From: an uncultured delta proteobacterium
GTDB taxonomy: Bacteria; Desulfobacterota; Binatia; UBA9968
Assembly: GCA_963737905.1 (NCBI GenBank)
Contig: CAVTUQ010000001.1
Coordinates: forward strand, 64,001 to 128,000
Length of the DNA: 64,000 nt
Direction of reading: 5' to 3'
Of this stretch, positions 1 to 31,157 are shown one piece after another. The first letter of the stretch is position 1; every line of letters starts with the position of its first letter. Position numbers and translations under genes: made by a program. The notes under the pieces are model-generated. The model was not told the origin of the DNA. It worked only from the letters and a program-made list of their open reading frames with translations, and ran no database searches.

Positions 1-151
1 GTTGCTTTGAAAGAGAGCGGAGTAAAAAAGGTCGAATCATGCCGCGATTCAGACACGAATCCGCTATGATGCAATTACGTCACTGTCTCTGCTATCATCT
101 GACCTAAGAACGTCGTGGGATTCCAATCCTAGGAAAAAACAGGCGCTCATT

Positions 152-595
152 ATGGCGGGCATTAAAGGTAGATCGGGACCACCGGGAAATCAGAACAACT
201 TCAAGCACGGGCTATCTGCAATTGAGAAACGACGCGAGTCAGGCTTGATCACCGCACACGAGGACGGCATTCGGACGGAAATCCTGGCTGGGCTGATTCA
301 GGATAAAGGCGGAGAGGTACAGATAAGCACCAGCATGCGGGTGTTGGCCGAGATAATCGCCAGCGATGTTTCTCTGTTGGTCAGCTTCAACCGCGCCATC
401 GAGGCCGTCATCCGAAACAACGCGAAGGCGAGAGAGAATCCCAAGGCGCTGGCACAGCTGGACGGGTACAAGCGCCCGTTGGTGGGCTCCCTGTCGGCGA
501 ACCTCCAGCGGTTTGGCATGGACAGGGTGGCCAAGGTCGAGACGCTGGAAGAAATCTTCAGCGAGGACGATGAAACCGGCGAGAATCCCACATAG
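152..595 (+). CDS. Hypothetical protein with phage small-terminase-like N-terminal motif (copy T1)
   Basis: 147 aa; N-terminal GRSGPPGNQNNFKHG resembles the GxPxGNxNAxKHG motif of many TerS-type proteins; two homologous copies at 18846 and 30813. Confidence 0.6.
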   Translation: MAGIKGRSGPPGNQNNFKHGLSAIEKRRESGLITAHEDGIRTEILAGLIQDKGGEVQISTSMRVLAEIIASDVSLLVSFNRAIEAVIRNNAKARENPKALAQLDGYKRPLVGSLSANLQRFGMDRVAKVETLEEIFSEDDETGENPT

Positions 596-1143
596 GATTG
601 TCCAGAAACGATGAACCAAGCCGGGCTGAAGTCCTGACTGTGCTATTGGATTGTTGTAGCTCTCTTGATCTGGGAAGCCGGACCGTCGGAACCGGAAACC
701 ACCAATTACCCAGTGCCGACGCCCGGCCCAGAGGACAATCACCCGTTCTTTCCGAATTCCCGCCACGCCGTAGAACGGCTCTTTGTCCGAATGTCTTTAG
801 CACCGGCAGCGGTCCCAATCCCAGGCCCATCTGTCCTCCTGAGTTTTGATGGTGGGACCACTATTCAGTCCAGATAGATATTTCAACTTCTCTCTGAGTG
901 TCTCGCCGCATGATCTCAATCTTTCGGTAGTCAGCGGCGGATAACTTTGTTTACACCATCATATCCCCAAGTAGACGTTGGCTTCCAAAAATAAGTTAAC
1001 TTTACGAAAAGGAGCCTTAATTTTCTGCGAATTAGTCGATCCGTACCATCAATCACGTTTGGCATCGGGATTGCCTTGTGTAGTTCGCAGTACACATCTA
1101 CCACGCAAGGGAGGTCAGGTCCTACAGGCAATGGAGGTGACTT

Positions 1144-1272
1144 ATGGTCCACAAGATGATCGTCTCCGCAATCATTGCTGGACTTCTCGGTGGATATATT
1201 GCGCTGCTATACGCGTTTTTCCAGACTGTGGCTCTTATTGATCATTCCTATTTCATGAGTTCCGCAATGTAG
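1144..1272 (+). CDS. Small membrane peptide, 42 aa (MVHKMIVSAIIAGLLGGYIALLYAFFQTVALIDHSYFMSSAM)
   Basis: Hand translation; strong RBS GGAGGTG just upstream; single hydrophobic segment; below ORF-track cutoff. Confidence 0.5.
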   Translation: MVHKMIVSAIIAGLLGGYIALLYAFFQTVALIDHSYFMSSAM

Positions 1273-1594
1273 TGGCAATAAGACTGGACCAAAGTACATC
1301 CTTCTCGGAAGCCTTTTCGGATCGAAAGGATGCGGCTAACGGGCGTACATCCTGACACGGCGGGCGGAGCCAGTCGCGGCATTGACACGCGCAAACTTCC
1401 GCCGGACCGCTGTACGGAATTTGGAAGGGCCGGGTTCCGAGCCTGCCGCCATGACCACGGTTGGTCACCTGACGATGAGCATTTTATTCGCGGCTACATG
1501 AGTTCGACCAGGCTCAGACAACGGGCACAGTAGATGACGAAAATGGAAATCAGCCGAGAGCACAGAGCTTACAACATTCCTAAAGAGAGAGGAA

Positions 1595-1642
1595 TGTGGC
1601 CGGGACAGAATCGAACTGCAACACGAGGATTTTCAGTCCTCT
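1595..1642 (-). pseudogene. tRNA-Phe(GAA) 3' half, degenerate; att-site-like
   Basis: Reverse complement gives GAGGA-CTGAAAA-TCCTC anticodon arm, TTCGA T-loop and acceptor 3' strand; D-arm and 5' half absent. Confidence 0.85.
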
Positions 1643-1756
1643 TACTGTACCGAGACTATGTGTCACCATCGGTCACTATCGGTATCTATTCTAGCGTTTA
1701 GCGGCGGTGCGCTGACTTTCATTTTACCGATTCGAACACATAGTGGCATATAGTTC

Positions 1757-1776
1757 TGGCAAAGTTGTGGCAAAGT
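1757..1776. repeat. Paired 9-bp direct repeat TGGCAAAGT-N2-TGGCAAAGT (integrase arm-site-like)
   Basis: Identical at 20613-20632; inverted versions at 18776-18795, 30743-30762 and 51359-51378. Confidence 0.7.
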
Positions 1777-1818
1777 CAATCAAACCCGTTCGCCCCAAGT
1801 TGTCTCAACCCCAGCCGA

Positions 1819-1863
1819 GTGGGCCGCCGAGACTCGTACTCCGGACCCGCTGATTAAGAGTCA
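1819..1863 (-). pseudogene. tRNA-Lys(CTT) 3' half, degenerate; att-site-like
   Basis: Reverse complement TGA-CTCTTAA-TCAGC GGGTC CGGAG TACGAGT CTC..GCGGCCC; begins in the anticodon stem. Confidence 0.8.
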
Positions 1864-2009
1864 AGTCCAGAACGGACCACCACGAAATATTGACAAGCAG
1901 GGCCAACTATTCGAAGTCCGCTTTCCTTTTTTTCCGACAATGGAAGGTCTATGTTCCGCCCAGGTTCAGGCACAAAACAAGCACAGCCGTGCGTGACGTG
2001 TGAGGAGAA

Positions 2010-3005
2010 ATGAATAAGCGGAAACTCGGTAGCTTTGCTCTATACGCCATGCTCATTGCTCTTGGCTTCCCAGCCGAGGCGCAGCAGCCGAAAAAAATCC
2101 CTCGGGTAGGCTTTCTATTATCGCCCTCCTCATCCGCTGACCCGGAGCGCACCGAAGCATTCCGCCAGGGTCTGCGCCAGCTTGGCTACGTGGAGGGTCA
2201 GAATGTCATCGTGGAATACCGCGATATGCGGGAGGCAAGGTCCACTGAGTATCCCAAGCTAGCTGCTGAGTTGGTCCGCGGTCTCAAGGCGGACCTCATC
2301 GTCGTAGGGGGCGGTACTGGTTTGGCTCGTGTGGCGAAGGAAACGACCAAGACTATTCCCGTCATTATGACAGGCGGTAGCGATCCGGTTGCCGCTGGGC
2401 TTGTTGCCAGCCTAGCGCGGCCAGGGGGAAACATCACAGGGCTAACCGGTATTACCGCAGAGTTAGCGGGCAAACGGCTGGAACTGTTAAAGGAGACCTT
2501 GCCCAGGCTCACCCGCGTCAGCGTGTTCTGGAATCCAGCGGACCAAAGTTCCGACCAGGGCTTTAAAGAGATAGAAATCGCCGCTCCGACATTGGGGTTG
2601 GCGGTTCAATCGCTTCAGGTGCGGAACCCCAGCAATTTCGAGAGTGCATTCAAAGCAGCCATTGCGGGACAAGCTCGCGCTCTCCAAGTTCTGCCGAGTG
2701 GCCTCGTCAATAGTCAGCGGACCCGCATCGTAGAGTTTGCGACAAAGAGCCGATTGCCAACGATGTTCGCGGATGCTTCGCAAGTCGAAGCAGGTGGGCT
2801 TATGTCGTACGGGCCGAACGCTCCTGACTTATATCGCCGCGCGGCTACCTATGTTGACAAGATCCTCAAGGGCGCCAAACCCGCCGATCTCCCGGTGGAA
2901 CAGCCGAAGAAGTTCGAGTTCATCATCAATCTGAAAGCCGCAAAGCAAATCGGTCTGACGATTCCGCCGAATGTGCTGGCGAGAGCCGATAAGGTGATCA
3001 GATGA
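2010..3005 (+). CDS. ABC transporter substrate-binding protein (ABC_sub_bind/COG2984 family)
   Basis: Signal peptide; DPVAAGLVASLARPGGNITG, GGLMSYG and PADLPVEQP motifs; RBS GAGGAG. Confidence 0.95.
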   Translation: MNKRKLGSFALYAMLIALGFPAEAQQPKKIPRVGFLLSPSSSADPERTEAFRQGLRQLGYVEGQNVIVEYRDMREARSTEYPKLAAELVRGLKADLIVVGGGTGLARVAKETTKTIPVIMTGGSDPVAAGLVASLARPGGNITGLTGITAELAGKRLELLKETLPRLTRVSVFWNPADQSSDQGFKEIEIAAPTLGLAVQSLQVRNPSNFESAFKAAIAGQARALQVLPSGLVNSQRTRIVEFATKSRLPTMFADASQVEAGGLMSYGPNAPDLYRRAATYVDKILKGAKPADLPVEQPKKFEFIINLKAAKQIGLTIPPNVLARADKVIR

Positions 3006-3282
3006 GTCGAGAGACATGCATGAGGGCAACGGAGGCTGGCCCACGGAGGACGACCGGACATCGAATTGAGAATGCACCGCTGACTGAACAGAAGTTCCCA
3101 TTGACCCCTGCTCGCGATATACGATGGCGAGACAAACACTTTATTGCCAGTTAAGAGGTCCAACGGAAAAACAACGAGGGAAAATACTCTTGGTCCGAGG
3201 CGCGCTAGGAAAGATGTGCCTCGAATGAGACCAGAGGGTGGCATCCATTAACGTCGAGGGTGATGCTTGGGTGTTACCGAGG

Positions 3283-4140
3283 CTATTCGCTCGCCACCTC
3301 CTTAAACCGACGCAAGGTTTCGATCTGATCATCGAACCTGGGGATGCGATACATAGGATAGAGCATCACTATGTCGGCGCCGAGACGCCGCCAGCCGTCT
3401 GCTCCAGTTGCCCAGTGTTGCGGCTCAGCATCGTGCATGCGCAACCAACCCTCGATGCCAAACTTTGCTGGGTCGCGCCCGAACGACCTGAGCTGTTCAC
3501 GCAGTGCCCCGAGTTTTTCCTCAGCCTGCGCATCAGGTTCGATGATCGGCATCCAGCCGTCTCCGAGCCGGGCGGCTCGTGTCACCGCAGCGTCTGACAC
3601 CCCGCCAAACCAGATCGGGATTGGCCGCTGCACCGGTGGCGGCACAATACTAACCTCATTCAAGTTGTGGAATCGACCGCTGAAGCTCACAAGGTCTTCC
3701 GACCACAGGCGGCGTAGGACCTCGACCTGCTCGGCTTGCCGCGCCCCCCGCGTCTTCCAGTCCATACCGAGCGACTCGTATTCGACGTGGTTCCATCCCA
3801 CCCCGATGCCGAGCCTCAAGCGCCCACCGCTCAGCAGATCGGCTTCGGCCGCCTGTTTGGCAATGACGCCGGTCTGGCGCTGCGGCGCGATTAGCACGCC
3901 GCTCGACAGGCGAATCCTCGTAGTGACCGCTGCGAGGAAACCGAGCGTTACGAATGTTTCGTGGAAGGGGTCTTTCTCATTGTAGCGTGGCGTCCATCCA
4001 TCGCGTGCCGTCGCGCCGAAGACGTGGTCCGGAACTTCTATGTACGCATAGCCCAAACCTTCCGCTGCCTGCGCCCAGTCGCGGATCTTTGCGGGATCGG
4101 TACCGATATCTCGGGTCGGAAAAAACGCATTGAGTCGCAT
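3283..4140 (-). CDS. LLM-class F420-dependent oxidoreductase
   Basis: VPDHV, LSGGRLRLGIGVGW and PIPIWFGG motifs; start placed at MRLNAFFP. Confidence 0.92.
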   Translation of the reverse strand: MRLNAFFPTRDIGTDPAKIRDWAQAAEGLGYAYIEVPDHVFGATARDGWTPRYNEKDPFHETFVTLGFLAAVTTRIRLSSGVLIAPQRQTGVIAKQAAEADLLSGGRLRLGIGVGWNHVEYESLGMDWKTRGARQAEQVEVLRRLWSEDLVSFSGRFHNLNEVSIVPPPVQRPIPIWFGGVSDAAVTRAARLGDGWMPIIEPDAQAEEKLGALREQLRSFGRDPAKFGIEGWLRMHDAEPQHWATGADGWRRLGADIVMLYPMYRIPRFDDQIETLRRFKEVASE

Positions 4141-4363
4141 AGTGCCCTCCGAGTCAGAATCCACTGTTTGTCCACCCATGAATGCTGCCATGACGGCAGC
4201 CACACAGCAACACAAAGTCTCGTTCAGGTGGAGCAGCGAGAACGATGCCTGCCGCTGCGCGCCACGCGCTTAGGACGCCAACCTTCAAACGGCTAACTTT
4301 AAAAGCGGACTGGCCCGTATCCTCATCTTTGGGGCAGACAGTATCCGACAAGGTGGCGTTATG

Positions 4364-7300
4364 TCAGATTGGAAGCGATGATCTCTCAGGTAAGGTAAAA
4401 CTGAAGGTAGAGCCCTTGCCCACTTCACTCTCTACCCAGATCTTACCCCCGTGCAGTTCGACAAACTTCTTGGCCAGCGTTAATCCAAGTCCGGTCCCCT
4501 CGACCTTATGTGCATAGTCGGAGCCCACCTGGCGAAATTCCTCGAATATCTTCGGCTGATCCTCGGGGGCGATCCCGATGCCGGTGTCACTGACCGAAAT
4601 CTCTACCGAACCATCCGCCTGCCTGGCGTTAATTCCAATCCGTCCTCCCTCCGGGGTGAACTTCACCGCATTCGACAGTAAGTTAAGAAGAACCTGTTTG
4701 ATCTTCCTCTCGTCACCCACGAAGTCTCCAAGACGCTCGTCAACTGTAACGTCGAGATTGATGCCGTGCTTTGTAGCCCGCTCGCGTACAAAGGTACGCG
4801 CATTGTCGATTGCCAAGGGGAGATCAAACTCAGCCAGCTCCAGCTCCATTCGGCCAGCCTCCACCTTGGAAAGATCGAGAATCTCATTGATGAGGGATAA
4901 GAGATGGCGGCCAGAGGAAAGAATATCGTCGGTGTACTCCGCTTGTTTCTCGTTCAGCTCGCCGAACAACCTCTCTCCCAGGACTTCAGAGAAGCCGATG
5001 ATGGCATTGAGCGGGGTGCGTAGCTCGTGGGACATGTTGGCGAGGAATTCCGATTTATGCCGGTTGGCAGCCTCAATCTGTTTACTCTTATCCTCGATCT
5101 CACGAAACAGCCGCGCGTTCTGGATCGCCAACACGGACTGGGTCGCAAAGGTCTGAAGCAGATTGATCACTTCCGGTGAGAAACTTCCCGTCCTGCGGCG
5201 ATAGATGGTCAGCCCTCCCATGATCCGATCCTCGCGCAGCAGCGGCACCGCAAGAAGCGAACGATAACCCAGCCGACCAAGCATGGGGCGGAACCGTGCG
5301 GTTGCATACTGCCGCTCATCAAGGACATCGGTGACTTGGACTGGCTCGCGACTGACTGCCGATTGGCCAACCGCGCCCCCGCCCAGTTGGATCGGGCTCG
5401 CTCGAAGCGCGTCTACCAACTCCTTTTCGATCTGATGACTGCCTCTCAGTTGAAACTCCTGCGTGGCCTCATCGTATTCATAAATCGCTCCACCGTCGGC
5501 ACCGCTCAGCTGGACCGCGTGCGAGGCAATGCGGGTCAAGACAGTTTCCAAGTCCAAAGTCGAGCTAACCGCCTGGCCGACTTCTCCTAACGCTTTGAGT
5601 TCTTCTACAGACCGCACCAATTCGCGGGTTCGCGCCTGCAATTCCTGGAACAGCCGCACGTTCTCAATAGCAATCACGGCCTGGTCGGCGAAGATCTTCA
5701 GAAGGTTAATTTGCTTGTCGGCGAATGGACGGACCTCGGCACGGCGGATCAAAATCGCGCCAATTGCAGCTCCTTCCCGCATTAAAGGCGTCACCAATGC
5801 GGTTCTGGTACCCGTTTGCGCCTGAATACTGGATGGATACTCGGTTCCCGCCGCGACGGCCATATCTTCAACGTGAATCGTCCGTCTATCGAGGATCGCC
5901 CGCCCGGCGATTCTATTCCGTTCTACAGGCAATTCTTCCCCTAAAAATACACCGTCGGGGATGGATGGCCCACATACCGCAGCGCGCCGCATGATCGTGC
6001 CGTCTACGCGGTAAACGATCGCGCTCGGCGCGTCGCATAGTCGCGCGGCGCTCTCCGCGATAGCATCGAGCACTGGCTGAATATCCGTGGGTGAACTAGC
6101 GATGACGCCCAGGATTTCACTCGTTGCCGTTTGCTGCTCCAGCGATTCCTTGAGTTCTTGGAACAACCGGACGTTCTCGATCGCTATCACCGCCTGATCG
6201 GCGAAGGTTTCGAGAAGCTTGATCTGCGCCGGGGTGAAGGGGCGAACGTCAACTCGACGCGCACCGAGGGTTCCAATGAGTTCCCCCTGTTGGCGAAGGG
6301 GAATAGACAAGTGGGTCCGCCATCCTACCTCGGAACTCACCAACGGGAATTCATTCTGTGCGAGGACATCGGGAATGTGGAGCGCGCCGTGCTCGCGCAT
6401 CCAGCGAAACCGTGGTGCATCGCTACTGACCTCGACAGTGGGAACGGGGATGGGACCAATGTGAGCCCGCGAAATCATCCTGTTCCCCTCCTGGAGCCGC
6501 AGCGACACATCATCAATCCCACAAACCCGCGCCGCGCTCTCGACAATGGCATCGAGCACCGGCTGCACGTCCGTGGGCGACCGGCTGATGATACCGAGCA
6601 CCTCGGCAGTCGCCGTCTGATGCTCCAGCGCCTCGCGTAGTTCCGCATTGCGCTCGCCGAGTTCCTTGAACAAGCGCACGTTCTCGATGGCGATCACCGC
6701 TTGGTCGGCGAAGGTTTCGAGAAGCTTAATTTGTTTGTCCGAAAAGGGGCGAACTTCGGTTCGGCGAATCAGGATAGCTCCGATTGCGGCCCCCTCCCGA
6801 AGCAAAGGTACAGCCAGGACGGTACGAATACCCAGAGGTTGGGAGAAAGCCCAGCCTTCGGGAAATTCAGCCTGAGCCTCTGGAGTCAAAATATCAACAA
6901 CGTGTACAACCTCCCGGTCCATCATAGCCCTGCCTGGAGGTAGACCCCGGATGAGAGGTCTAGTTACGTCGCGTTGGGCAATAGCCATGGTTCCGTGCGA
7001 GGCCACAAGCCGATAGCCGCTGCCGTCAACACGATAAATGTTGGCATCGGCTGCATCACACAGCCGGGCGGCATTCTCCGCGACCACGTCCAGTACCGGT
7101 TGAATATCCGTCGGCGAACTGGCGATGACACCTAAGATTTCACTTGTGGCGGTCTGCTGCTCCAGCGACTCGGTGAGCTGGCGGTTGCGATCCTGTAATT
7201 CCTGTAATAGCCGGACGTTCTCGATCGCGATGACGGCTTGGTCGGCGAAGGTACTAACAAGCTCGATTTGTTTTTCAGTAAACGCCTCAACCTCGCGCCT

Positions 7301-10300
7301 GCTGAGAAAAAACACCCCGGCGAGGATATCTTCTCTTAGCATAGGCACGCCGAGCATTGTGCGGAAGCCGCCGATTCTCTGATGATCACGCAACTGATAG
7401 TCCGGGTCAGCTAGCGCGTCGAGGATATGAACTGGTCGGCGCTCGATCTCGACCCGGCCCACGAGCGAAGCTCGCCCACGCGGGATGGGGTTCTGTTGAA
7501 CGAACTCTCCGAACTCAGCGGGAACTCCGAAGTCCGCCGCCCACCTATGGACCTCGCCGTCAAATCTCAAGATAAACCCTGTGTCGGCACGACAGAGCCT
7601 GGCGGCATTTTCGACGAGCGTCGTGAGTACCGGCTGCAGGTCGAACGCGGAGCGGCTAATTACCTTCAGAACTTCGCTGGTCGCGGTCTGCTGGTCCAGA
7701 GCCTCGGTCAGGTCACGGTTTCTTACCTGCAATTCCCTAAACAGCCGCACGTTCTCGATGGCGATCACGGCCTGGTCTGCGAAGGTCTTTAGCAAGGCTA
7801 TCTGCTTATCTGAAAATGGGCGCACTTCCGTTCGACGGATGACAATAGACCCGATCGCTATACCCTCTCGCAGCAGTGGCGTGGCAAGAACAGATCTACC
7901 TCCCGAAATTTGAAAAAGGTTGCGAGCGTCCGGAAACTCAGTTTCGATCACCGCAGCCATGTCATGAACATGAACAGTCTTCTGGTCAATGACAGCCCGG
8001 CCCCCTGGAAAACCGCGACTGGTTTTTCTGGAATCTGCTGCTGCAATCGGTCCAAACTTCGCAGCGGTCCGAAGGTTATCGCCATCGACGCGAAGGATCA
8101 GAGCGTCATTCGCCTCACACAGCCGCGCGGCATTTTCTGCAACCACATCCAACACGGGCTGGATGTCGGTCGGGGAGCTAGCGATCACGCCAAGAATCTC
8201 GCTTGTGGCAGTTTGCTGCTCCAACGACTCCTTGAGTTCTTGAAACAACCGCACGTTCTCGATGGCGATCACGGCCTCGTCGGCAAAGGTCTCAAGGAGC
8301 TTGATCTGCGCCGGAGTAAAGGCGCGCGCCTCGATGCGGCGTGCGTTCATCGTTCCAATGAGTTCCCCTTGCTGACGAAAGGGAACGATTAAGAGAGTTC
8401 GCCGACCGACAACGGAACCCAACAATGGAAAATCATTCTGAGCACGGACATCCGGAATATGGAGTGTGCCATGCTCGCGCATCCAGCGGTACTGCGGCTC
8501 TTCAATACTGATCTCGCCGCGACTAACGGGTATGGGACCAAAATGAGCCCGCGAAACCAAAACGTTCCGCTCGCGCAGCCGCAGCACCACGTCATCAATC
8601 CCACAAACCTTTGCCGCGCTCTCGACGATGGCGTCAAGGACGGGCTGCACATCCGTCGGCGAACGGCTGATGATGCCCAGCACCTCGGATGTCGCTGTCT
8701 GATGCTCCAGCGCTTCACGCAATTCAGCATTGCGTTCCTGAATCTCTTTGAACAACCGCACGTTCTCGATGGCGATCACTGCTTGAGAAGCGAAGGTCTC
8801 AAGCAATTTTATTTGCCGCTCGCTGAACGGCCGGACTTCTTTGCGGCGGATATAGAGCGCGCCGATCGACACGCCTTCGCGTAGCAATGGCGCCACCAGC
8901 GCTGTGCGAACTCCCATGGCGACTCCGCGGGTCTGAGCGTCGGGAAAATTGGATTCGGCCGCTGCGAGGTCATGTACATGGATAGTTTCCCGGTCGAGAA
9001 TAGCTCGACCCACCGGCCCTCCACGCCTAAGCGAGTCGGAAGTTTGTTCGCGGACGGGCATTGAGCCATAACTCGCGACTCTTTCATGAGAATCCCCGTT
9101 GACCCGGAAGATCAGGGCATCGCTCGCGTCGCAGAGCTTCGCGGCATGCTCCGCCACCGTATCCAACACCGGTTGCACGTCGGTTGGCGAACTGGCGATC
9201 ACTCCCAAGATTTCACTCGTCGCTGTCTGCTGTTCCAATGCCTCCTTGAGTTCTTGGAATAACCGAACATTCTCAATCGCGATGACCGCTTGGGCGGCAA
9301 AACTCTCGACCAATCTGATCTGCTGTTCGGTAAAGGGCTGGACTTTGAGCCGGCGAATGTGGATGAGTCCGAGCGGTTTGCCGTCATGCACCAAAGGAAC
9401 CGCCAGCGCAGTGCGAACCCCAAGGGCTATCCCTCGCTCCTTAGCACCGGGGAAATCCACTTCGGCTTCCATGAGGTCGTGAACATGAAATGTACGACCC
9501 TCTTTTACCGCTCGTCCGGCAAATCCGCCGTGCTCAATGGGAGCCTGCGTTCCAACCTCGTTTATCAGACGAATGGAACCAAAATGTGCCACGGTCTCTA
9601 AAAAAGGCCCTTCGACGCGCCGGATCACCGCATCGTCAGCGCCGCAAAGGCGGGCGGCATATTCTGCGATTGTGTCTAGGACGGGCTGTATATCCGTTGG
9701 GGAGCTGGCGATTACGCCCAAGATTTCGCTCGTCGCCGTTTGTTGCTCCAGCGAGTCTTTGAGTTCTTGGAATAACCGAACATTTTCAAGCGCGATCACC
9801 GCCTGGTCGGCGAAAGTTTCAAGAAGCTTGATCTGCGCCGGTGTGAAGGGGCGCACCTCGGTTCGACGCGCACTCAGCGATCCAATGAATTGCTCTTGCA
9901 GACGAAGAGGAGTGACCAAGGAAGTGCGAAACCGGTACCTGACGGCACCCAGCATTGGAAAATCGTTCTGCGCGGCTCGGGCGTCAGGAACATGAAGGGT
10001 GCCATGCTCGTGCACCCAACGAAACTCTGGCGCGTCAATACTGATCTCCGCTAGGCGCATAGCCATGGGACCAAAATGAGCTCGTGCAACCATTAGAGTT
10101 CCCCTCGCGGAGTCGCAGCACCACATCATCAATTCCACAAACACGGGCCGCGCTTTCGACGATCGCGTCGAGCACCGGCTGCACGTCCGTGGGCGAGCGG
10201 CTGATGATGCCGAGCACCTCGGCGGTCGCCGTCTGGTGCTCCAGGGCCTCGCGCAGCTCTGTGGCAGTCGCCGCCTGGTGCTCCAATGCGTCGGCGAGCT

Positions 10301-10475
10301 GCTGGTCACGCTCCTGCAATTTTTTAAGAGCTGTGTTCTCCCGCTGCAAAGATTCGGTGAGTTGCTGGCGTAGCTCCGCAATCGTCTGCCCTCGTTTAGC
10401 CAGAGTCGTTTTCACCACCGCACGATGTGGTTTTGCCTTGGTATTCTTAGGGCCTTTTTTGGTCGGCGTTACCAT
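4364..10475 (-). CDS. Cytoplasmic sensor histidine kinase with 10 tandem GAF domains; one frameshift near 10097
   Basis: Ten [19 protein letters not shown] ends; H-box [13 protein letters not shown] and HATPase motifs. The true N-terminus is ORF 10035..10475 (homologous to the 29470 start), joined by a 1-nt indel. Confidence 0.93.
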
Positions 10476-11256: not shown

Positions 11257-11328
11257 GCAGAATGACACTCCCGCTCAAAGGAACTTCCACTTTACAAAAA
11301 TGGCTACCGCGGATGAATGGTCATCAAT

Positions 11329-20496: not shown

Positions 20497-20685
20497 ATAC
20501 CGTACCGGGACTATGTGTCACTATCGGTCGCTATTGGTATCTATTCAAGCGTTTAACGGCGGTCTCAGCCGGTCGATTTTACCGATTCGAACACATAGAT
20601 GGCATATAGTTCTGGCAAAGTTGTGGCAAAGTCAGTGAACCTCGTTCGGCCCAAAGTCGTCTCAATCCAGCCATTAAATAAGTCT

Positions 20686-20731
20686 TGATGGCCGCCGAGA
20701 CTCGAATTCCGGACCCGCCGATTAAGAGTCA
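20686..20731 (-). pseudogene. tRNA-Lys(CTT) 3' half, degenerate
   Basis: Homologous to 1819-1863; CTCTTAA anticodon loop and TTCGAG T-loop. Confidence 0.78.
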
Positions 20732-21209
20732 AGTCCAGCGCGGACCAGAACAGAACATTAATAAGAATGCCCAACCATTTCGAGGCCCGCTTGGCTTTTT
20801 CTTCGGCAATGGAAGGTGTATGTTCTGCCCAGATTCAGGCACAAAACAAGCACAGCCATGAGGTGAAAGCCATGAGGCGCGAGGGAGAAATGAATAAGCG
20901 GAAGCTCGGTAGCTTTGCTCTAAGCGTGATGCTCCTTGCGCTTAGCGTATCCGCTCAGGCGCAGCAGCCAGCGAACGTTCACAAGATAGGCGTGCTGCGA
21001 GCCGATTCGCCGCCGAATCTCTCGGCAGAGACATTTCAGCAGGCAATGCGCGATCTTGGTTACGTAGAAGGCAAGAATATCGTCATCGAGTACCGCTACG
21101 CCGAAGGAAAAGTTGACCGGTTACCCAACCTTGCGGAAGAGTTAGTGCGTCTCAATGTAGACGTGATCTGGGCACTAGGCCCAGCAGTTTCGCATGCCAA
21201 GCGGAAAAT

Positions 21210-22523
21210 TTCAAGATAGATGTCGCATTGATTGTTCAATTGAGATTCTCTGACGTTGGACAATGACTGTTCACTGTGAAACGAAGCCCGGAGTCCAAGA
21301 GCGATGGTTAGCGTATCATCGCTCGGCTGATTTTTGACCCTAGGTACACCCTCACCTACATCGCCAGCGTTCGTTGTAGGGCATTTATGGAAGCCGTTTT
21401 TGGGGCCGACCCAGTCGATATCGGAAAATTGCTTGAGGGCCTCACTCATGACCGAGATTGTTGGCGAGGCAGGATCGAGGGATAGTTCCTCGTCGGTTTC
21501 GCTGTTGTGCTTTTTAGGATTGAGACACACTTCGGTGATCGGCACCCAGTTGCGCGTCTGCCCCGACCAGCGCAGCGGGTTTAACTGCTTGGCCTTTTCA
21601 TACACCGCCACACGCTTGGCTAGAATCGCTTTGTCCAATCCCAGGTGTCGAGAGCTGGGCGTGACAAAACGAATCGCGCTATGAAGATGCTCAGTGTTGT
21701 ACCACTGCACAAAACCACCCACCCACTGTCGGGCTTGATCGATCCCGCTAAAGGCGCTGTCGGGATAGGAGGGACGGTACTTCAGGGTTTTGAACAGCGA
21801 TTCAGAATATGGGTTGTCATCGCTCACCGCGGGACGACTAAAAGACGCCGCCACTCCCAGCCGCTCCAGAGTCGCCAACAAGGTGGCCCCTTTCATCGGG
21901 GCGCCATTGTCCGAATGTAACGTCAGCTGCCCTCTGGCAATCCCTTGCTCTTGGCAGAGCCGATCGATCAACCGTGCTCCATGCTCGGCGCTCTCCATTT
22001 CTTCAACGGTCCACCCAACGATCATCCGGCTGAAAATGTCTTCGACCAAGTACAAATAATAATAGGCCCCGCGCACCGGGCTGTTCAGATACGTGATGTC
22101 CCAGCTCCACACCTCGTTGGGATGGCGCGCTAGCAAATCCTTGGGCCGGCGCCAAACGCGCGGCTTACTGTTTTGACGGTGCGACAGCAACTGGTTTTGT
22201 TTTAACACCCGGTAAAAACTGCTCTCCGATCCCAGATACTGCCCAGCGTCGGCTAACCGCGCCACCATCTGCCACGGCGACAGATCGCGATACGCTCGGC
22301 TATTGGACACTTCCACAATGGCTTGTTTCTCTTTCTCGCTGAACCCATGCCCACACACGCTCTTCGGCCCCCGTCGCTGATCGCCCCGGTCGGGATCTTT
22401 CTCCCACCGCTCCACCGTCCGTAGACTCACCTCCAGCACTTCGCAACTAGCCACCCGCCCCGCGCCACTGGCCCTGGCTTGCTGGACCAGCTCTATACAG
22501 CGACCGCGATCTCCCACGCTCAC
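21210..22523 (-). CDS. IS3 transposase OrfB (rve integrase core); ends approximate
   Basis: WSWDITY, LHSDNG and DNPYSESLFKTLK DDE motifs; A9G slippery run at 22555-22564; no stop before the IS end. Confidence 0.85.
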
Positions 22524-23062
22524 TGCTCCTCTCCGCTGCCCCAGATCAAGTCTGCTTTTTTTTTCAACACCAACAACGCCGTCGTCTCCGCCAACGCCTT
22601 CTCCTTGCGAGAAAGATCTCTCTCCAACTCCTTGATCTTTTTCTTGTCCGCCGCCCATTCGCTGCCATTGGCCGCCGTTAATCCACCGCCCCCCGATTCC
22701 AGCCCCACCTCCATACTCTTCTTCCATCCCGCGATATGTTCGCTATGGAGCCCTTCCCGCCGCAAGTACTCACCCTGCTCTTCTACCTCCAGTCCTTCGA
22801 ACTCGATCACTGCTCTCAGTTTCTCTTGCACGCTTCGATCTCCCGGTCTGCGATGGGCTTTCATCACCTCCGTCTTACCATAGCGCTTGCTCCATTGATA
22901 AAGCGACCAGCTCGATACTCCCAGCACTCGCCCCACCTCTTCCACCGACCGCGATCCTCGATTCTGAAACTTTTCCACTGCCGCTCTTCTAAACTCCTCG
23001 CTCCTTTGTTGACTCACTTGCTTCTTCTTCTCTCTCGCCCCACTTTTCCGCTCTTGCTCCAC
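22520..23062 (-). CDS. IS3 transposase OrfA
   Basis: HTH plus IKELERDLSRKEKALAETTALLVLKKK. Confidence 0.88.
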   Translation of the reverse strand: MEQERKSGAREKKKQVSQQRSEEFRRAAVEKFQNRGSRSVEEVGRVLGVSSWSLYQWSKRYGKTEVMKAHRRPGDRSVQEKLRAVIEFEGLEVEEQGEYLRREGLHSEHIAGWKKSMEVGLESGGGGLTAANGSEWAADKKKIKELERDLSRKEKALAETTALLVLKKKADLIWGSGEEQ

Positions 23063-23938
23063 GCGACATCTATCCTGACATTAGGGGCCAAGAATGCTAC
23101 CAAAACAATCCCTATTGTCATAACACATGTTAGCGACCCTGTAGGATCAGGGCTAGTCGCCAGCCTGGCGCGACCCGGAGGCAACATAACGGGATTGTCC
23201 GGTGTTTCCGCTGGAGCTACTAAGCGGCAAGCGACTGGAGCTTCTGAAGGAGACCGTTCCCAAGTTCTCCCGTGTGGCTTTCTTCGGACCTACCCTCGGG
23301 CAACCACAAACAGTTAAAAGAGATGGAACGCGACGCCGGGGAGTTAGGGGTAAAGCTTCAATACTTAGAGGTACAGAGTCCCAAGGAAATTGAACCCGCA
23401 CTTCTAGCCGCGAGCAAAGGGCGTGCTCAAGCAGTCCTCATAAATAGGAACCCCTTTACTGCTATTCATTACGCACGGATCGCAGAGCTTGCGATAAAGA
23501 ACCGCCTTCCAACCATGTACGCCGATAGGGAGTTCGTCGAAGCCGGTGGGCTAATGTCCTATGGACCAGACTATATCTTTATGTATCGACGCGTTGCCGT
23601 TTACGTGGACAAGATTCTGAAAGGCACCAAGCCCGCCGATCTGCCCGTAGAGCGGCCCATGAAGTACGAGCTGGTGATAAATCTCAAGACCGCGAAGCAG
23701 ATCGGTCTGACGATTCCACCGAATCTGCTGGCACGGGCAGATAAGGTGATTAAGTAAGACGCTGAACACCAGAAGCGGAGGCTGGGTCACACCCGGCGAG
23801 CGGACATCGAATCGTAAATGTCTGCTGAGTGAATATCAGATGTCCCCAATAATGGCCCTGCGTCGCGATATACGCTTGCGAGACGACAGTCGCTACGCTC
23901 AAATTTATGGTTCTTGTCGTTATCCCCCACGATTAAAA

Positions 23939-26900
23939 TCAGCTTGGCGATGATCTCTCAGGTAAGCTAAAGCTGAAGGTAGACCCTTTGCCTATCTCAC
24001 TTTCTACCCAGATCTTTCCCCCATGCAGTTCGACAAACTTCTTGGCTAAGGTTAACCCAAGTCCGGTCCCCTCGACCTTATGTGCATAGTCCGCTCCCAC
24101 TTGGCGGAATTCCTCGAATATCTTTGGCTGATCCTCCGGGGCGATCCCGATGCCGGTGTCACTGACCGATATCTCTACCGAACCATCAGCCTGCCTGGCG
24201 TTAATTCCAATCCGTCCTCCCTCCGGTGTGAACTTCACGGCATTGGAGAGCAGATTAAGCAGGATCTGTTTGATCTTGCGCTCATCACCTATGAAATCGC
24301 CAAGATGCTCGTCAACAGTAACGTCGAGGTTGATCCCGTGCTTGGTGGCCCGCTCGCGCACAAAGGTACGCGCGTTGTCGATTGCCAAGGGCAGATCAAA
24401 CGTAGCAACCTCTAGCTCCATGCGGCCAGCCTCCACCTTGGAGAGATCGAGAATCTCATTGATGAGGGACAAAAGATGGCGGCCGGAAGAGAGGATGTCG
24501 TCGGTGTACTCGGCTTGTTTCTCGTTCAGCTCGCCGAACAGTCTTTCCTCCAAGACTTCCGAGAAACCGATGATGGCATTGAGCGGCGTGCGTAGCTCAT
24601 GGGACATGTTGGCGAGAAACTCCGACTTGTGCCGATTGGCGGCCTCGATCTGACGGCTCTTGTCTTCGATCTCGCGGAACAGTCGGGCGTTTTGGATCGC
24701 CAATACGGACTGGGTGGCGAAGGTTTTCAAAAGCTCGATGACTTCGGGGCGAAACTCGCCGGTGGATTTTCGCCTGACCACCAAGCCGCCAATGATGCGG
24801 TCTTCGCGTAACAACGGGACAGCCAGACTGGCGCGAAAGCCGAAGCGCTCCAGCAACTGACGCATTCGCAGCGCATACGTGTGCTCTTCGAGGATATTGG
24901 GGATTTGTATGGGTTCACGCGTTGACGCTGCCCGACCCACCAACCCGTCTCCCAAGTGCGGCGGATTGGCGCGAAGCGCGTTGATGAGTTCTTCCTCCAT
25001 GTGATCAGTAGCCCTGAGCAAGAACTCTTCGGATTCTTCGTCATATTCGTAAATCGCTCCGCCGTCCGTGCCGCTTAACTGGACCGCATGGGAGACGATT
25101 CTCGTCAGTACGGCTTCGAGGTCGAGAGTGGAGCTGACTACCTGGCTGACTTCGCCGAGGGCTTTGAGTTCGCCTACCGAGCGTGTCAGTTCGTTGGTTC
25201 GCTCATCTAATTCTTTGAACAGCCGAACGTTCTCGATGGCGATGACGGCCTGGTCAGCGAAGGTTTCGAGGAGCTTGATCTGCGCCGGGGTGAAGGGGCG
25301 CACCTCAATGCGACGTGCTGTCAGGTATCCAATGAGTTCCCCCTGTTGTCGAAGGGGAACGTACAAGCCGGTGCGCCAGATACCAGAATGGCCCACCAAT
25401 GGGAAATCGGTCTGCGCTCGCACGTCCGGAATGTGGAGCGTGCCGTGCTCACGCATCCACCGAAAAAATGGTTCATCAATATTGATCTCGACGCGGTTAA
25501 TTGGTATCGGGCCAAAGTGAGCCCGGGGAACTATAACGTTCCCCTCGGGGAGTCGCAGTATCACATCATCAATCCCACAGACCCGCGCCGCGCTCTCGAC
25601 GATGGCGTCCAGAACGGGCTGCACGTCCGTCGGCGAGCGGCTGATGATGCTGAGCACCTCGGCCGTTGCCGTCTGATGCTCTAGCGCCTCGCGCAATTCT
25701 GCATTGCGCTCGCCCAATTCCCGGAAGAGGCGGACGTTTTCGATGGCAATGACCGCCTGCGACGCAAAGGTTTCAAGCAGCTTAACCTGCTTATCAGTAA
25801 AGGGACGAACTTCGGTTCGTCGGACGTTGATCACTCCTATGGAAACACCCTCGCGAAGCAAAGGCGTCGCAAGAATTGTCCGAGTCCCGAAACGTTGTTG
25901 TAAGATTTTGCTTTCCGGAAAGTCCTTATCGCTCTCTGTAGCGAGATCGTGAATATGAACCGTCTGCCGATCAACGATAGCCCGAGTACCGACTAAGCCA
26001 CGAGTAATGGGACGTTTCTCTTCCTGACCGGGTGCTGGCTGTGTACCGTAGGATGCCCATTGGCGAACAAAATCGCCCTCGACACGACTGATTTGCGCGT
26101 CAGTGGCGTCACATAGTCGCGCGGCACTTTCTGCAACGGCATCGAGCACCGGCTGGATGTCCGTAGGTGAACTAGCAATGACACCCAAGATTTCACTTGT
26201 CGCAGTCTGCTGATCCAACGACTCCTTGAGTTCGTTGAAAAGCCGGACGTTTTCGATGGCGATCACCGCTTGGTCGGCGAAAGTCTCTAGGAGCTTGATC
26301 TGCGCTGGGGTGAAGGGGCGCACCTCGATGCGACGTGCGATGAGCCTGCCGATGACTTCCCGCTGCTGACGAAGCGGAACCGCCAAGAAGGTACGAAAGT
26401 TGCCGAGCGGAGTTATTTGAAAATCCATTTGGGCTTGGTTCAGTACATCGGGAATGTGGACCGTACCAAGATGGAGAGTCCAAGGCCTTCCTCCCTCATC
26501 AATACTGATCTCTCGGCGGGCAACTGGTATGGGACCAAAATGAGCCCGCGCAACCATATTGTTTCCCTCATGAAATCGCAATATAAGATCATCTATCCCA
26601 CAAACCCGCGCGGCACTCTCGACGATAGCGTCGAGAACCGGCTCCACATCGGTGGGCGAGCGGCTGATGATGCTGAGCACCTCGGCGGTTGCGGTCTGAT
26701 GCTCCAGCGCCTCCCGTAATTCTGCGTTCCGATCCTGCAATTCCTTAAACAGCCGCACATTCTCAATAGCGATCACTGCTTGGTCGGCAAAAGTTTTTAG
26801 GAGGTTTACCTGTGTGTCGGTGAAGGGACGGGTCTCTTGGCGGCGAATCGTAATAACCCCGATAGGTAGGCCTTCCCGCAGCAATGGCGTGGCAAGAATA

Positions 26901-29470
26901 GTCCGTGTACCCGTAAGCTGTTGGAAAGCTAGAGACTGAGACTCTGGGAACTCGGTTCTCTCTGCCGCCAAGTCATGAACGTGAATAGTTTGCCGGTCGA
27001 CTACGGCTCGGCCGGTGGGCAAACCGCGACTAATAGGTAGAACTTCTGCCGGCGCAGGTACAGGACCATGCTTTGCCACCAGTTTGAGGCTCTCGCCATC
27101 GACGCGATAGATTAGAGCGTTTAATGCCTCGCAAAGGCGGGCCGCATTCTCCGCAACCACATCCAGCACCGGCTGAATGTCCGTCGGCGAACTAGCGATA
27201 ACACCCAAGATTTCGCTCGTCGCAGTCTGCTGCTCCAACGATTCTTTGAGTTCTTGGAACAGCCGGACGTTTTCCAGGGCGATGACGGCCTGGTCTGCAA
27301 AGGTTTCGAGCAGCTTGATTTGCGCCGGCGTGAACGGGTGCACCTGTATGCGACGTGCGACCAGTTCGCCAATGAGTTCCCCGTGGTGAAGAAGTGGAGC
27401 GGTTAAGTAACTGCGCCAGCCGCCAGCGGAAGCCAACATCGGGAAATCGTTCTGCTCGCGAACGTCAGGAATATGGAGCGTACCGTGCTCACGTATCCAA
27501 CGATACCGCGGTTCATCAATATTGATTTCGCGTACATTAATCGGAATGGGACCAAAGTGAGCTCGTGGAACCGTAATGTCGCCCTCGCACAGTCGCAACA
27601 GCATATCATCGATCCCACAAACCCGGGCAGCGCTCTCGACGATTGCATTGAGCACCGGTTGCACGTCCGTGGGCGAGCGGCTGATGATGCCGAGCACCTC
27701 GGAGGTTGCCGTCTGATGCTCCAGGGCCTCTCGTAATTCTACATTCCGCTCCTGGATCTCCTTAAACAATCGCACGTTCTCGATAGCGATGACAGCTTGA
27801 TCGGCGAAGGTTTTGAGCAGTGCGATTTGCTTGTCGGTGAATGGCTTCACCTCCAAACGGCGAATCCCAATGACACCAATGGGAACGCCTTCGCGGATTA
27901 ACGGAGTTGCGAGCATTGTGCGAGTGGGATTAATCTGGCTTAAAGTCTTGGAATCTGGAAACTCGCTTTCAAGCTGTGCTGCGACATCATGAACGTGGAT
28001 CGTCTGCCGATCGACCATGGCCCGACCACTCACCCAGCCACGGCTAATAGGCATTGATTCTTCAATCCCAGGTAGCGGCCCATAATGGGCGACCCGCCGA
28101 AGGTTATTACCTTCAACTCGAAGGATAATGGCATCGTTAGCACCGCAAACCCGCGTTGCGTTTTCGGCGACGACGTCGAGCACCGGCTGAATATCCGTCG
28201 GCGAGCTGGCGATGACGCCCAGGATCTCGCTCGTCGCCGTCTGCTGCTCCAACGATTCTTTGAGTTCCTGGAACAGCCGCACGTTCTCGATGGCGATGAC
28301 GGCCTGGTCGGCAAAGGTCGTGACCAGCTCGATCTGTCGTTCGGTAAATGGCGCGACCGTTTCGCGCCAGATCGAAATCGTCCCAATTGGAATCCCCTCG
28401 CGGAGCATGGGTACAGCAAGGAAAGTGCGTAATCGGACCGGCGGCAGTTCGAAGGTCGGATCTTGTTCAACATCCGGGATATGGATCGGTTTGCGCTCCA
28501 GGAACGCACGACCCGGTCCTGTCTCTCGACCTGGTCGCACTGGTGTCTCCTGGAAGGCTGCCGCCCCTTCAGCGCTGACGTTGTAGTAAGCAACCAGTTG
28601 GAGAAACTCGCCGTCATATTGGCGAATGTGACCGTGCTCGGCCCCGATGAGCCTGACGGCATTTGCAATCACCGTGTCCAGCACAGGCTGGAGTACAGTG
28701 GGCGAGGATGCGATAACCCGAAGAACTTCGCCGGTTGCGGTCTGCTGTTCCAATGCCTCGGTTAGGTCGCGGTTGCGTTCCTGCAACTCTCTGAAAAGCC
28801 GCACGTTCTCGATGGCAATCACGGCCTGATCGGCGAAGGTTTTGAGGAGAGCTATCTGTTTGTCCGTAAAAGGTTGAACTTCCGTGCGTCGAATGAGAAT
28901 CGCTCCAATCGGAAGACCCTCCCGGAGCAGTGGCGCGCCGAGCACAGACCGGGTTCCGTCGCGGACAGCTCGCGACTTGGCGAGTGGAAACTCCACCTCT
29001 GATTCTGCTTGCATGTCGTGGACATGGACGAGCTGTCCGTCGACCACGGCTCGCCCAGCGACGGAGGCACGATTCAACGGGGTTGCATCCGCAGTTCTGG
29101 GAATCGCGCCGAAATGAGCCGCATCGCGAAGAACGTCGCCATCGAGCCGATGAATGATAGCATCCTGTGCATCGATCAAACGCGCGGCATTTTCAGCGAC
29201 AGCGTCAAGCACTGATTGCAGGTCTGTGGCGGAGTTAGCGATAATCCCCAGAATCTCGCTGGTGGAGGTCTGCTGTTCCAATGCTTCCGCGAGCTGACGA
29301 TCACGTTCCTGCAACTTTTTGTCCTTTGCTTCCTCCCGCTGCAAAGATTCGGCGAGTTGCTGGCGTAACTCCGCAATCGTCTGCGCTTGTTCAGCCACAA
29401 GCGTGTTCACCATGGGACGGCGCGGTTTTGCCTTTTTGTTATCAGAGCCTTTTTTGGTCGTGGTTGCCAT
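23939..29470 (-). CDS. Cytoplasmic sensor histidine kinase with 9 tandem GAF domains
   Basis: Nine GAF-terminal motifs; HisKA/HATPase nearly identical to the 4364 kinase. Confidence 0.96.
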
Positions 29471-29742
29471 AAAAAACCAACTGGAGACCGTCGCAGGCGA
29501 AACTAAAGACGTGGCCTGATCGGTTTACTTGTGGTAACAGCTCGCCCGGCGGCTGAACTGTCTTTTACGCCAAGGCACTCGGTGGCGTCAAGGAAAGGCT
29601 GCCTTGCCGTGCCAAGTGAAAGGTAGCGCGAGACTTCTGCCAAAACGGGGAGGCGAGGAGCGGTTGCGGATGCAACGTTCCGAGCTGAGCCGCTGAGGAC
29701 AAAATCCGAGATAAAAAAGCCGAGATCCCGTGCAGGCGTAGT

Positions 29743-29865
29743 AATAGCCGTAAATGCAGGGACTCTAAAGCATGCTTTCTGAATTTTTGGACACCGCGCA
29801 CCCAAGAATAGCCGTGCTGCTGAAACCCAAAAAGCTTGCTTTCCGATTTTGAGTCCCGCGCGCAC
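29743..29865. repeat. Two imperfect tandem repeats, about 64-bp period
   Basis: AATAGCCGT...AAAGC(A/T)TGCTTTC..ATTTT...CGCGCAC occurs twice. Confidence 0.7.
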
Positions 29866-30003
29866 GTAAACCGCGCCGCTTGGCCCGTCGGTGACGTGGG
29901 TCGGGTGCCCCTGGACTCAGGTTGGTGAAACGGGGGGCTCAATTCTAGCAGTTCTCATCCGCGACGTTTTCCCGCTATGGACGATAGCCACTAGCGAGCG
30001 CAA

Positions 30004-30505
30004 TATGGTACAATTTCAAGCTAACGAGATGAACGCAAAACACGACGGCGGATTAATCAAGTTCATGCATTTCTCAAACCGGCTTTGTTTTTATGGGATT
30101 GGCCTGATTGGTGTTTTGTTTTTAGTTGCTTATCACGCTTCAGCAACGCTCTTTCCATTCGACTCCGACCTTCTACCGGTATCCGGTACCTTCTTTGCTC
30201 TTATTGCGATTCTATTTTTCTCAATCGATAGAACAATGGAGTCGCAGGCCAGAGAAATAGAGATCGCACATCGCTTTGCTCAGGTATTTTTCGCGTTGGC
30301 TGAAGAAGGCCAAGCTGTCGGTTCCGCAGAGAAAAGGGGCCATACGCGAGCGGCGGCGGAGAAAATCGAGGAACTGAAGAAGAACTTAAAGACCAAAATA
30401 ATAAAGGCTGAGAAGCATCTTCGAAGCGAATGGCGCTTCGTTGTAGTGAGCAGTGTGACTGTACTTCTTGGGTTCCAGGCTGTCCTTTCGAGCCTTAAAC
30501 ATTGA
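30004..30505 (+). CDS. Hypothetical membrane protein (start uncertain)
   Basis: Open frame with three hydrophobic segments and a charged helical linker. Confidence 0.55.
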
Positions 30506-30665
30506 CGGGATACCCCCACGGAGCCAGTCAGTATAGGTTTGTGAGTGAGCGGCGAAATCACAACGAGGATCGCCTTCTTCCCCCTACGCAATATTCTACA
30601 ACCCCCCTTAACATGATCTAAAACTGGAGCCTATAAACAGCAGAGCACATCGAATACGGCTAGCA

Positions 30666-30762
30666 AATCGAACCCCACCGACACGAGGACTACTAATCCT
30701 CGTAGCGCGTCTAACCGCAAGAAAACACAATCGAATGTTTTCACTTTGCCACTACTTTGCCA
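30666..30762. mobile_element. att-like site: degenerate tRNA-Phe 3' half, core GACACGAGGA-CTACTAA-TCCTCGT, and ACTTTGCCA twice
   Basis: AATCGAAC..CCGACACGAGGA matches 20463-20484; flank homologous to 18713-18850. Confidence 0.7.
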
Positions 30763-30812
30763 TAAGTAAACAGCTATGGGAAAATGAATCCTGCTACGTG
30801 GGAAGAAACGAA

Positions 30813-31058
30813 ATGGCTGGATTGAAAGGAAAGAGCGGACCTCCAGGCAACATGAACGCCTTCAAGCACGGGCTGGCGGCTATTCAGAAGCGGCGCGAGG
30901 AAGGAATTCCCACCGAGCACGAGAAGAATGTCAGGCAGCAGATTCTAGACGGCTTGATAGCCGATAAGGGCGGTGACGAGCAGATATCGACGGCCACGAG
31001 GATTCTGGCTAAGGTTATCCGCCTTAGATGCCGCATAGCGCGGACTGGTGAGAACTGA
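30813..31058 (+). pseudogene. Small-terminase-like gene copy T3, 3'-truncated
   Basis: Near-identical to T2 up to ILAKVI (about 31020), then unrelated. Confidence 0.8.
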
Positions 31059-31157
31059 GAACCACCGCCCTATAGGATTACAAACGGACAGTCAAATGAT
31101 TGGTTCAGTGAAGGCGAAAAGTCTTGGTGATCTTTAGAGAGAAATTTACGGTAAAGC

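Follow-up and report, generated by a model that had tools for sequence, protein, structure and literature searches.

In streptococci, cis-mobilizable elements (CIMEs), which are bounded by att sites and have no recombination module of their own, are stacked by site-specific accretion with integrative and conjugative elements (ICEs) or integrative and mobilizable elements (IMEs). The attC sites of integrons have the organization R''-L''...L'-R' with a GTTRRRY core. Of the 3919 islands in Islander, 2083 have anticodon-centred sites, and 125 tandems are counted (PMC4383910). According to the available portion of the tycheposon report, repeated integration at one tRNA in Prochlorococcus pushes older elements inward, the islands contain scattered partial tRNAs and degenerate elements as well as nutrient-uptake cargo, and one subclass, similar to phage-inducible chromosomal islands (PICI-like), has a terS or capsid gene only (10.1101/2020.12.28.424599). 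Here we describe a head-to-tail array of integrase-less units, joined at partial tRNA-Phe genes, in a 64,000-nt stretch of DNA from an uncultured delta proteobacterium of the class Binatia (contig C1, positions 64001-128000, hereafter "the window"). The source assembly (G000) consists of 46 contigs, with a completeness of 87% and a contamination of 6.7%. The array is a real and broadly familiar kind of site-specific island building, that of CIME- or tycheposon-like tRNA-anchored tandem islands. We put at roughly 0.6 the probability that it arose by tandem accretion of non-autonomous integrative elements, derived from tyrosine-integrase elements that targeted the anticodon stem-loop of tRNA-Phe. 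In what follows, coordinates without a prefix are those of the window, C numbers denote contigs of G000, G numbers the 201 genomes sampled from the class (G000 counted), and L numbers metagenome loci.

As in the class A islands of Islander, each unit is marked by a displaced, direct tRNA 3' fragment, the 3' half is borne by the element, and the joint is centred on the anticodon stem-loop; unlike in the Islander tandems, where an integrase is needed in every unit, no unit here carries a cognate one (PMC4383910). The array also differs from Islander islands in that no intact tRNA lies at its end on C1 and that the units contain a second, internal hairpin site. A regenerated tRNA at the island end, by which islands of the Islander type are recognized, is absent from C1 and present in the relative G199. 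Like a CIME, the complete unit E1 lies between two cores with the loop TTTTCAG, each with its arm, and contains no integrase, relaxase or transfer gene detectable with Pfam; unlike in CIMEs, the target is tRNA-Phe, no conjugation module is near, and a TerS-like gene hints at phage packaging. With integron arrays and clusters of attC sites lacking integron-integrases (CALIN) it shares unrelated cargo, conserved and partly palindromic joints, the lack of an integrase in view and a smallest unit of one small gene (L046). It differs from them in its joints, where GAGGA-N7-TCCTC hairpins are combined with tRNA halves and a ~135-nt arm (the comparison is with the general attC consensus, for which no search was made), and in its units, which can be as long as 17 kb and have genes on either strand, unlike the short, mostly single-gene and co-oriented integron cassettes. 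The stacked tRNA-anchored units, scattered partial tRNAs, degenerate elements and uptake cargo resemble tycheposon islands as the available portion of the report presents them, and the weakly TerS-like gene may recall their terS-only members; unlike there, the array yielded neither an integrase nor a replication module of the tycheposon type and the host is a soil bacterium, and that portion mentions neither a long arm with 9-mer pairs nor a second hairpin site (10.1101/2020.12.28.424599). New here are the absence of a cognate integrase, the long conserved arm, the second hairpin with its private loops, and the location away from the tRNA gene.

The array and its tRNA-Phe joints

The first-pass annotation had read the left part of the window as alternating T and S units, joined at four core sequences that are each followed by a pair of the same 9-mer. 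We searched for the core as GACACGAGGA-N7-TCCTC with up to 3 mismatches on both strands, with 100 shuffles as control, and obtained 10 matches in the window against a shuffle mean of 2.0; none of the 100 shuffles reached 10. All four plus-strand cores were recovered, at 1620 (1 mismatch), 18713 (2), 20475 (0) and 30680 (0), together with two matches absent from the first list, at 18659 (2 mismatches), a duplicate near the 18713 site, and at 54194 (1 mismatch). The 9-mer TGGCAAAGT is present in seven exact copies, where 0.48 would be expected and none of 100 shuffles had seven: on the plus strand at 1757, 1768, 20613 and 20624, and on the minus strand at 18776, 30743 and 30754. The predicted 9-mer pairs are all in place, one of them with an imperfect member at 18787 (ACTTTGTCA, 1 mismatch), and a fifth, degenerate pair was found at 51359 on the minus strand.

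The joints at 1620 and 20475 proved to be tRNA-Phe att-type sites, as had been proposed. On the minus strand, 1597-1641 and 20450-20496 correspond to positions 26/27-67/74 of tRNA-Phe(GAA) with 95-98% identity, and thus span the tRNA from its 3' end to the anticodon stem-loop. The intact gene, whose location the first-pass annotation had asked for, is the sole tRNA-Phe(GAA) of the genome (C3:25438-25511). A third Phe 3' half lies outside the window, 5.6 kb to its left (C1:58353), and it has the same direct orientation as the two halves inside (65597 and 84450 on C1). After each of the three follows the same ~135-nt arm, closed by a 9-mer pair. These joints delimit the element E0 (7.2 kb, starting at C1:58353 outside the window), of which only the right part, T1 (1-1596, plus strand), is inside the window; E1 (18.9 kb), separated from E0 by the junction at 1597-1641 (minus strand, loop TTTTCAG on the plus strand); and the truncated E2, separated from E1 by the junction at 20450-20496 (minus strand). 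The P arm of E1 (1642-1776, plus strand) contains four CTAT motifs ~10 nt apart and ends in the direct TGGCAAAGT pair 1757/1768; that of E2 (20497-20632, plus strand) ends in the direct pair 20613/20624. Further copies of the arm are present in the genome on C28 and, three times, on C16, and beyond its tRNA part the arm has matches only in G000, G161 and G199 among the 201 class genomes. The arm copies are mutually 88-90% identical, compared with 78% for the adjoining kinase genes, and the loop is TTTTCAG in all 14 arm junctions found by similarity. This anatomy of 3' half, core with the 7-nt loop TTTTCAG, and arm makes the joints attP-like, and their sequence supports the view that the 9-mers act like arm-type sites, with integrase binding as their putative function.

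Behind the arm lies cargo. A tRNA-Lys(CTT) 3' half, already noted for the S units by the first-pass annotation, was found ~40 nt past the arm in both S1 (1819-1863) and S2 (20697-20731), on the minus strand; the matches start at position 29 of the tRNA, with the break at the anticodon stem. The first copy is a relic of another tRNA-targeted junction, and is followed by a conserved leader of ~90 nt before the binding-protein gene. S1 (2010-18712) encodes a PF04392 binding protein (2010-3005), a luciferase-like oxygenase (3283-4215, minus strand), a histidine kinase with 10 GAF domains (4364-10381, minus strand) and ~8 kb of unrelated metabolic genes, followed by a methyltransferase fragment that reaches into the next joint. 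S2 (20767-30679) contains a PF04392 gene split by an insertion sequence (IS) with an rve transposase of 543 aa (21096-22727, minus strand), a histidine kinase with 9 GAF domains (23939-29470, minus strand) and ~1.2 kb of other open reading frames (ORFs). The Pfam scan thus bears out the S-unit content that had been described, namely a binding protein, a poly-GAF kinase and unrelated cargo. The binding protein and the kinase are the genes common to S1 (17 kb) and S2 (10 kb), which have genes on both strands; the other cargo is unrelated.

Some further observations concern this cargo. The ~90-nt segment directly 5' of the PF04392 genes (1900-1996 and 20779-20860) recurs at C19:49034-49099 and C25:10740-10835 and in L004 and L007; it comes after an arm with the Lys half or after the 9-mers, has no Rfam match, and could be a leader or promoter element. 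The two GAF kinases are soluble proteins made of internal repeats of roughly 0.5-1 kb, and related kinases with 2-10 GAF domains are found as cargo in L061, L081, L115, L123 and C28. An rve ORF resembling the transposase of the S2 IS is present in L067.

Homology breaks and integrases at the core

We scanned metagenomes with a pattern that covers the loop and the first part of the arm, and it matched at least 120 stretches; 80 of these were turned into loci. Among the matches listed, 67 non-identical junctions had enough flank for statistics: 19 have the Phe half on the left, 42 have unrelated left flanks, and six are intermediate. Column conservation climbs from ~30% to >80% where the last 12 nt before the loop begin on the left (CCGACACGAGGA), and these 12 nt are identical to the tRNA-Phe sequence; the median pairwise identity is 0.25 to the left of this boundary and 0.76 in the arm to the right. 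Many of the "unrelated" left flanks retain AATCGAA-like T-loop remnants, as decayed tRNA halves would. Given this position of the break, and the tRNA sequence between it and the loop, the crossover would lie within the core of 12 + 7 + 5 nt, and cannot be placed more closely.

The first-pass annotation had named dispersed copies, with different cargo switching at the core, as the support to look for, and such copies are what the at least 120 metagenome stretches contain; joints and arms of this kind, with other cargo, are present in many soil metagenomes. Modules have been reassorted among genomes: in the loci listed, 30 locus pairs have only the left flank in common, 41 only the right side, and three have both. 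The chromosomal left boundary of the G000 array (glyoxalase, NMT1 binding protein, Phe half) is found in L079 and L095 (393 nt at 78% identity for L079), where arms and cargo differ from those of G000 from the core onward. In G199, a member of the same family, a TerS unit with a similar right end adjoins an intact tRNA-Phe and the conserved neighbour gene. Taken as comparative evidence, site-specific recombination at the core is well supported. We also noticed that in L113, oriented 879-5700, a single arm junction precedes three core-like hairpins, which are spaced at 1.4-1.8 kb and lack 9-mer pairs; these may represent an array built on a simpler kind of site.

No cognate recombinase gene accompanies the array. 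The earlier statement that the window lacks an integrase stands, since there is no match to PF00589 in it; Pfam profiles run on the 63 window ORFs detected no integrase, relaxase or transfer gene, and no integrase, regulator or replication module of their own was found in T1 or T2. NCBIfam, applied to 28 unnamed ORFs, gave a name to a single one, the recombinase borne by an IS91-family unit. This Xer-like protein (C1:58830-59642, inside E0) is the nearest tyrosine recombinase, 5 kb left of the window. It is encoded in a unit (C1:58681-61161) where the recombinase (SAM_4 + PF00589) is followed by Zn_Tnp_IS91 and Y2_Tnp pieces, and which begins 143 nt past the E0 arm. The unit has three genomic copies with sharp common ends, and the other two (C25:342541-345059 and C22:22259-19809) adjoin no arm, Phe half or 9-mers. 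We considered the recombinase as the cognate integrase and rejected it, because it is a member of an IS91-family unit whose two other copies lack arm and tRNA half.

Integrases are found at the same joint elsewhere. In seven metagenome loci an integrase gene ends immediately to the left of the joint formed by Phe half, core and arm (L065, 425 aa, L088, L087, L134 and L058 by Pfam; L063 and L062 by tblastn); an adjacent integrase is what the first-pass annotation had proposed to look for. These proteins belong to a family other than that of the IS91-borne recombinase, and are not of the IntI type. A direct 9-mer pair is also present ~100 nt left of the core in L087, L063 and L134, in L087 inside the 3' end of the integrase gene; hence sites with repeats flanking one core on both sides exist. 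A PF00589 search of the genomes behind L003, L004 and L006 returned many integrases, none of which could be placed beside the arrays.

Second-type sites and the candidate mobile unit

The joints between S and T are of a second type. They were found at 18713, 30680 and C1:63933 and in 14 more instances, which make 13 distinct sites in all, and consist of a degenerate remnant of a tRNA half, the stems ACGAGGA/TYCTCGT around a 7-nt loop, a spacer of 37-40 nt and an inverted 9-mer pair. In the S1-T2 site (18713-18795, plus strand) the hairpin reads ACGAGAA-TTGCTAA-TCCTCGT, and 37 nt of spacer separate it from the inverted 9-mers ACTTTGCCA and ACTTTGTCA; the S2-T3' site (30680-30762, plus strand) has the hairpin ACGAGGA-CTACTAA-TCCTCGT and the inverted 9-mers 30743/30754. 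The 13 distinct sites have 13 different loops, none of which is TTTTCAG, and in no case is the site preceded on the left by an intact Phe half. The idea that the hairpins are anticodon arms of other tRNAs was dropped: the loops fit YTNNNRA on the plus strand only, and no T-arm follows.

These sites fall into two subtypes, G with TGGCAAAGT and F with TTTCAAAGC and the stems CAGAGGA/TTCTCTG. In seven of eight S bodies (E1, E2, C16, L097, L046, L123 and L081) the 9-mer subtype of the arm at the start is that of the site at the end, and in the eighth (E0) one of the two 9-mers agrees; across T units it disagrees in two of five cases (T1 and the short T of L107). The smallest S body, that of L046, is 0.55 kb long with a single small gene, and the largest measures 17 kb; T can be reduced to 100-270 nt without genes (L107 and L089). 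Because the 9-mer subtype is linked across S, the second-type loops are never TTTTCAG, and T can shrink, the likely mobile unit, judged from these sequence features, is S+T between successive TTTTCAG cores. The first-pass proposal of separate S and T cassettes is not borne out by the subtype linkage across S bodies or by the S-to-T loops, which in 13 of 13 cases differ from TTTTCAG.

T2 (18796-20449, plus strand) and T3' (30763-31019, plus strand) show, with T1, what T units contain. The TerS-like protein, of 147 residues and all-helical, is intact in T1 (152-595), next to small cargo, has become a pseudogene through an in-frame stop in T2, and is cut after ~70 residues in T3', where the likeness to T2 stops at 31019. 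An ORF with small cargo is thus present as had been stated, with the likeness to TerS being only weak. PHROG 9231, "terminase small subunit", was matched with an E value of 5e-4, and the HK97 small terminase is the top structural match among 48,161 chains (Z 7.0, root mean square deviation 3.4 A over 86 residues), a score within the noise range for helical proteins. Foldseek comparison of the model with PDB and BFVD found no match at E <= 0.001, and a tblastn search of 50,697 phage records none at all. The family is large and unnamed, with more than 1,200 relatives, and is matched in four of the 201 class genomes, G000 among them; relatives identified through the TerS-like protein are labelled Candidatus Binatia or uncultured deltaproteobacterium. 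An arm (90% identical) and a TerS-like gene are present in L046 and L002, which are binned as Pyrinomonadaceae and Methyloceanibacter, respectively; this reflects either transfer across phyla or a binning error.

Alternative explanations, neighbouring features and significance

In the accretion that we favour, a unit starts with the ~135-nt arm and its 9-mer pair, to which an integrase probably binds as to an arm-type site, continues with free cargo and closes with the tRNA-Phe 3' half that the element itself carries. If a cognate integrase were provided in trans, it could excise or add units between two TTTTCAG cores, with the crossover presumably within the loop. The second site probably represents what a TerS-bearing element contributed, a short (P'-type) arm and a fossil core, the cargo part having become joined to that element. 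Any mobility of the units, or activity of the system, at present is putative.

Several findings weigh against this explanation. ARAGORN found no intact tRNA on the whole of C1 (138 kb), which leaves the array without a visible regenerated tRNA end. The tRNA-Phe on C3 is unoccupied and retains, on either side, ancestral flanks that are common to G153 and G193. Either the C1 array is therefore located elsewhere in the genome, or its contig comes from another organism of the bin (6.7% contamination). Modules common to different contexts are 72-91% identical and in no case nearly identical, so that the reassortment may be old, and E1 and E2 diverge to a similar degree throughout (78-84%). No cognate integrase was found in the 87%-complete assembly, in which the best relative of the L087-type integrase is a fragment of 84 residues on C22. 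The best-matching sequencing runs had 0.30 and 0.21 of the sampled words. When contigs of relatives from four runs (X1, X2, X3 and X6) were compared with 16000-32000, these distant relatives showed no circle and no empty site, and no piece bridges a joint of this strain. Finally, the second-type stems are conserved and yet the 13 sites have 13 loops, which a simple "fossil" interpretation of these sites does not fully explain. Separately, one X6 contig has a joint that goes back from 30731 to 20442 (side 47, likeness threshold 88); we considered a circle, and take the joint instead to come from a relative whose T unit is very short, as in L107.

Much of this would also be expected if the array were a relic of one or few old integrations followed by segmental duplication of an S+T block, indels and cargo replacement, with nothing mobilizable left and the arms kept for another reason, such as a promoter or operator function for the adjoining genes. 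We regard this as unlikely, though it accounts well for the common order of parts in E1 and E2 and their similar divergence (81% in the arm region, 78% in the kinase, 84% in the second-type site and TerS), for the broken TerS genes of T2 and T3', for the IS in the S2 binding-protein gene, for a contig with neither cognate integrase nor intact tRNA, and for modules that are never nearly identical in different contexts. A duplication does not predict that the end of the S2 kinase is nearer to its counterpart in L123 (79.6%) than to that of S1 (77.9%), to which L061 is equally near (77.6%). The same comparison, with S1 and S2 kinases 78% identical, does not bear out the first-pass suggestion that the array amplifies sensor genes. 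Nor would a relic explain why the arms are better conserved than the adjoining coding DNA, why the same arm is joined at one sharp boundary to at least 42 unrelated left flanks, or why strains that share the chromosomal flank have different DNA beginning at the core.

A bolder possibility, for which the odds seem to us lower again, is that the two site types form a working two-site cargo platform, widespread in soil bacteria, that is, a tRNA-derived and integron-like capture system with partner control. Integrase-less cargo of any size would be held between the long arm at a TTTTCAG core and the short inverted arm at the second core, whose 7-nt loop would be free to vary with each copy. A private loop would keep the second core from recombining with the Phe core and thereby tie the cargo to its TerS-bearing carrier, and matched 9-mers would still let one integrase acting in trans assemble on the whole composite.

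That S and T are two kinds of cassette, each mobilized alone between neighbouring joints of an alternating integron-like array, as the first-pass annotation had it, we consider doubtful. The alternation of arm-type and second-type sites does recur in L003, L060, L078, L081, L089, L097, L105, L107 and L123; a joint of degenerate half, TTTTCAG and arm, expected of free or tandem S units, is found at C16:38081 and in the 42 metagenome junctions; and T-like units without S exist in C25, L004, L007 and G199. However, recombination between a TTTTCAG core and a second-type site needs matching overlaps, which none of the 13 sites offers, and the intact Phe half that excision of S should leave beside a second-type site was seen in none of them. 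The 9-mer subtype is moreover carried across S into the following T and not across T, and T can be gene-free and as short as 100-270 nt (L107 and L089).

Very improbable is an arm and hairpin that form the end of a transposon-like or IS91-linked element inserted into many sequences by the Xer-like recombinase: 42 of 67 left flanks are unrelated, the sharp-ended IS91 unit does lie close to the E0 arm and an IS91 transposase lies ~1 kb from the arm in L064, but neither the C25 nor the C22 copy is accompanied by an arm, a Phe half or 9-mers, the Xer-like recombinase shows no separate arm-binding domain, the 12 nt left of the loop are tRNA-Phe and many flanks keep AATCGAA remnants, and a different integrase family abuts the joint in seven loci.

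ARAGORN predicted no tRNA genes in the window, and Rfam at gathering thresholds had no matches in it. To the right of the span covered by the first-pass annotation, an inverted relic (51360-51590, minus strand) consists of an F-subtype second-type site, then the last ~56 nt of a P arm with the degenerate 9-mer pair. In its vicinity, small unnamed ORFs are interspersed with two more direct-repeat pairs, 52045-52353/52457-52764 (78%) and 49728-49941/56753-56928 (69%). The core-like hairpin at 54194-54330 (plus strand) has the loop TTTGAAA and an arm of ~100 nt, and a GmrSD-type nuclease gene comes after it; the reverse complement of this arm is the left flank of two P-arm junctions on C16 (34592-34684 and 36919-37030), and the hairpin may therefore be a further partner site of the system. 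ORFs with a Fic domain (63144-63992) or a PIN domain (42011-42472) and an MqsA-like antitoxin (19758-20267, in T2) are scattered in the island region, as is usual in mobile DNA.

If the array is only a relic, it is a clear example of tRNA-derived joints that persist and mark the growth of an island. The second hairpin, with conserved stems and a loop that differs in each copy, could bear on how an integrase chooses its partner. The sharply bounded site of ~170 nt and the candidate integrases of L065 and L087/L088 make up a directly testable recombination system. If the units can be mobilized, they would represent a route by which soil bacteria commonly exchange genes for transport and sensing, with no need of an integrase in each island.

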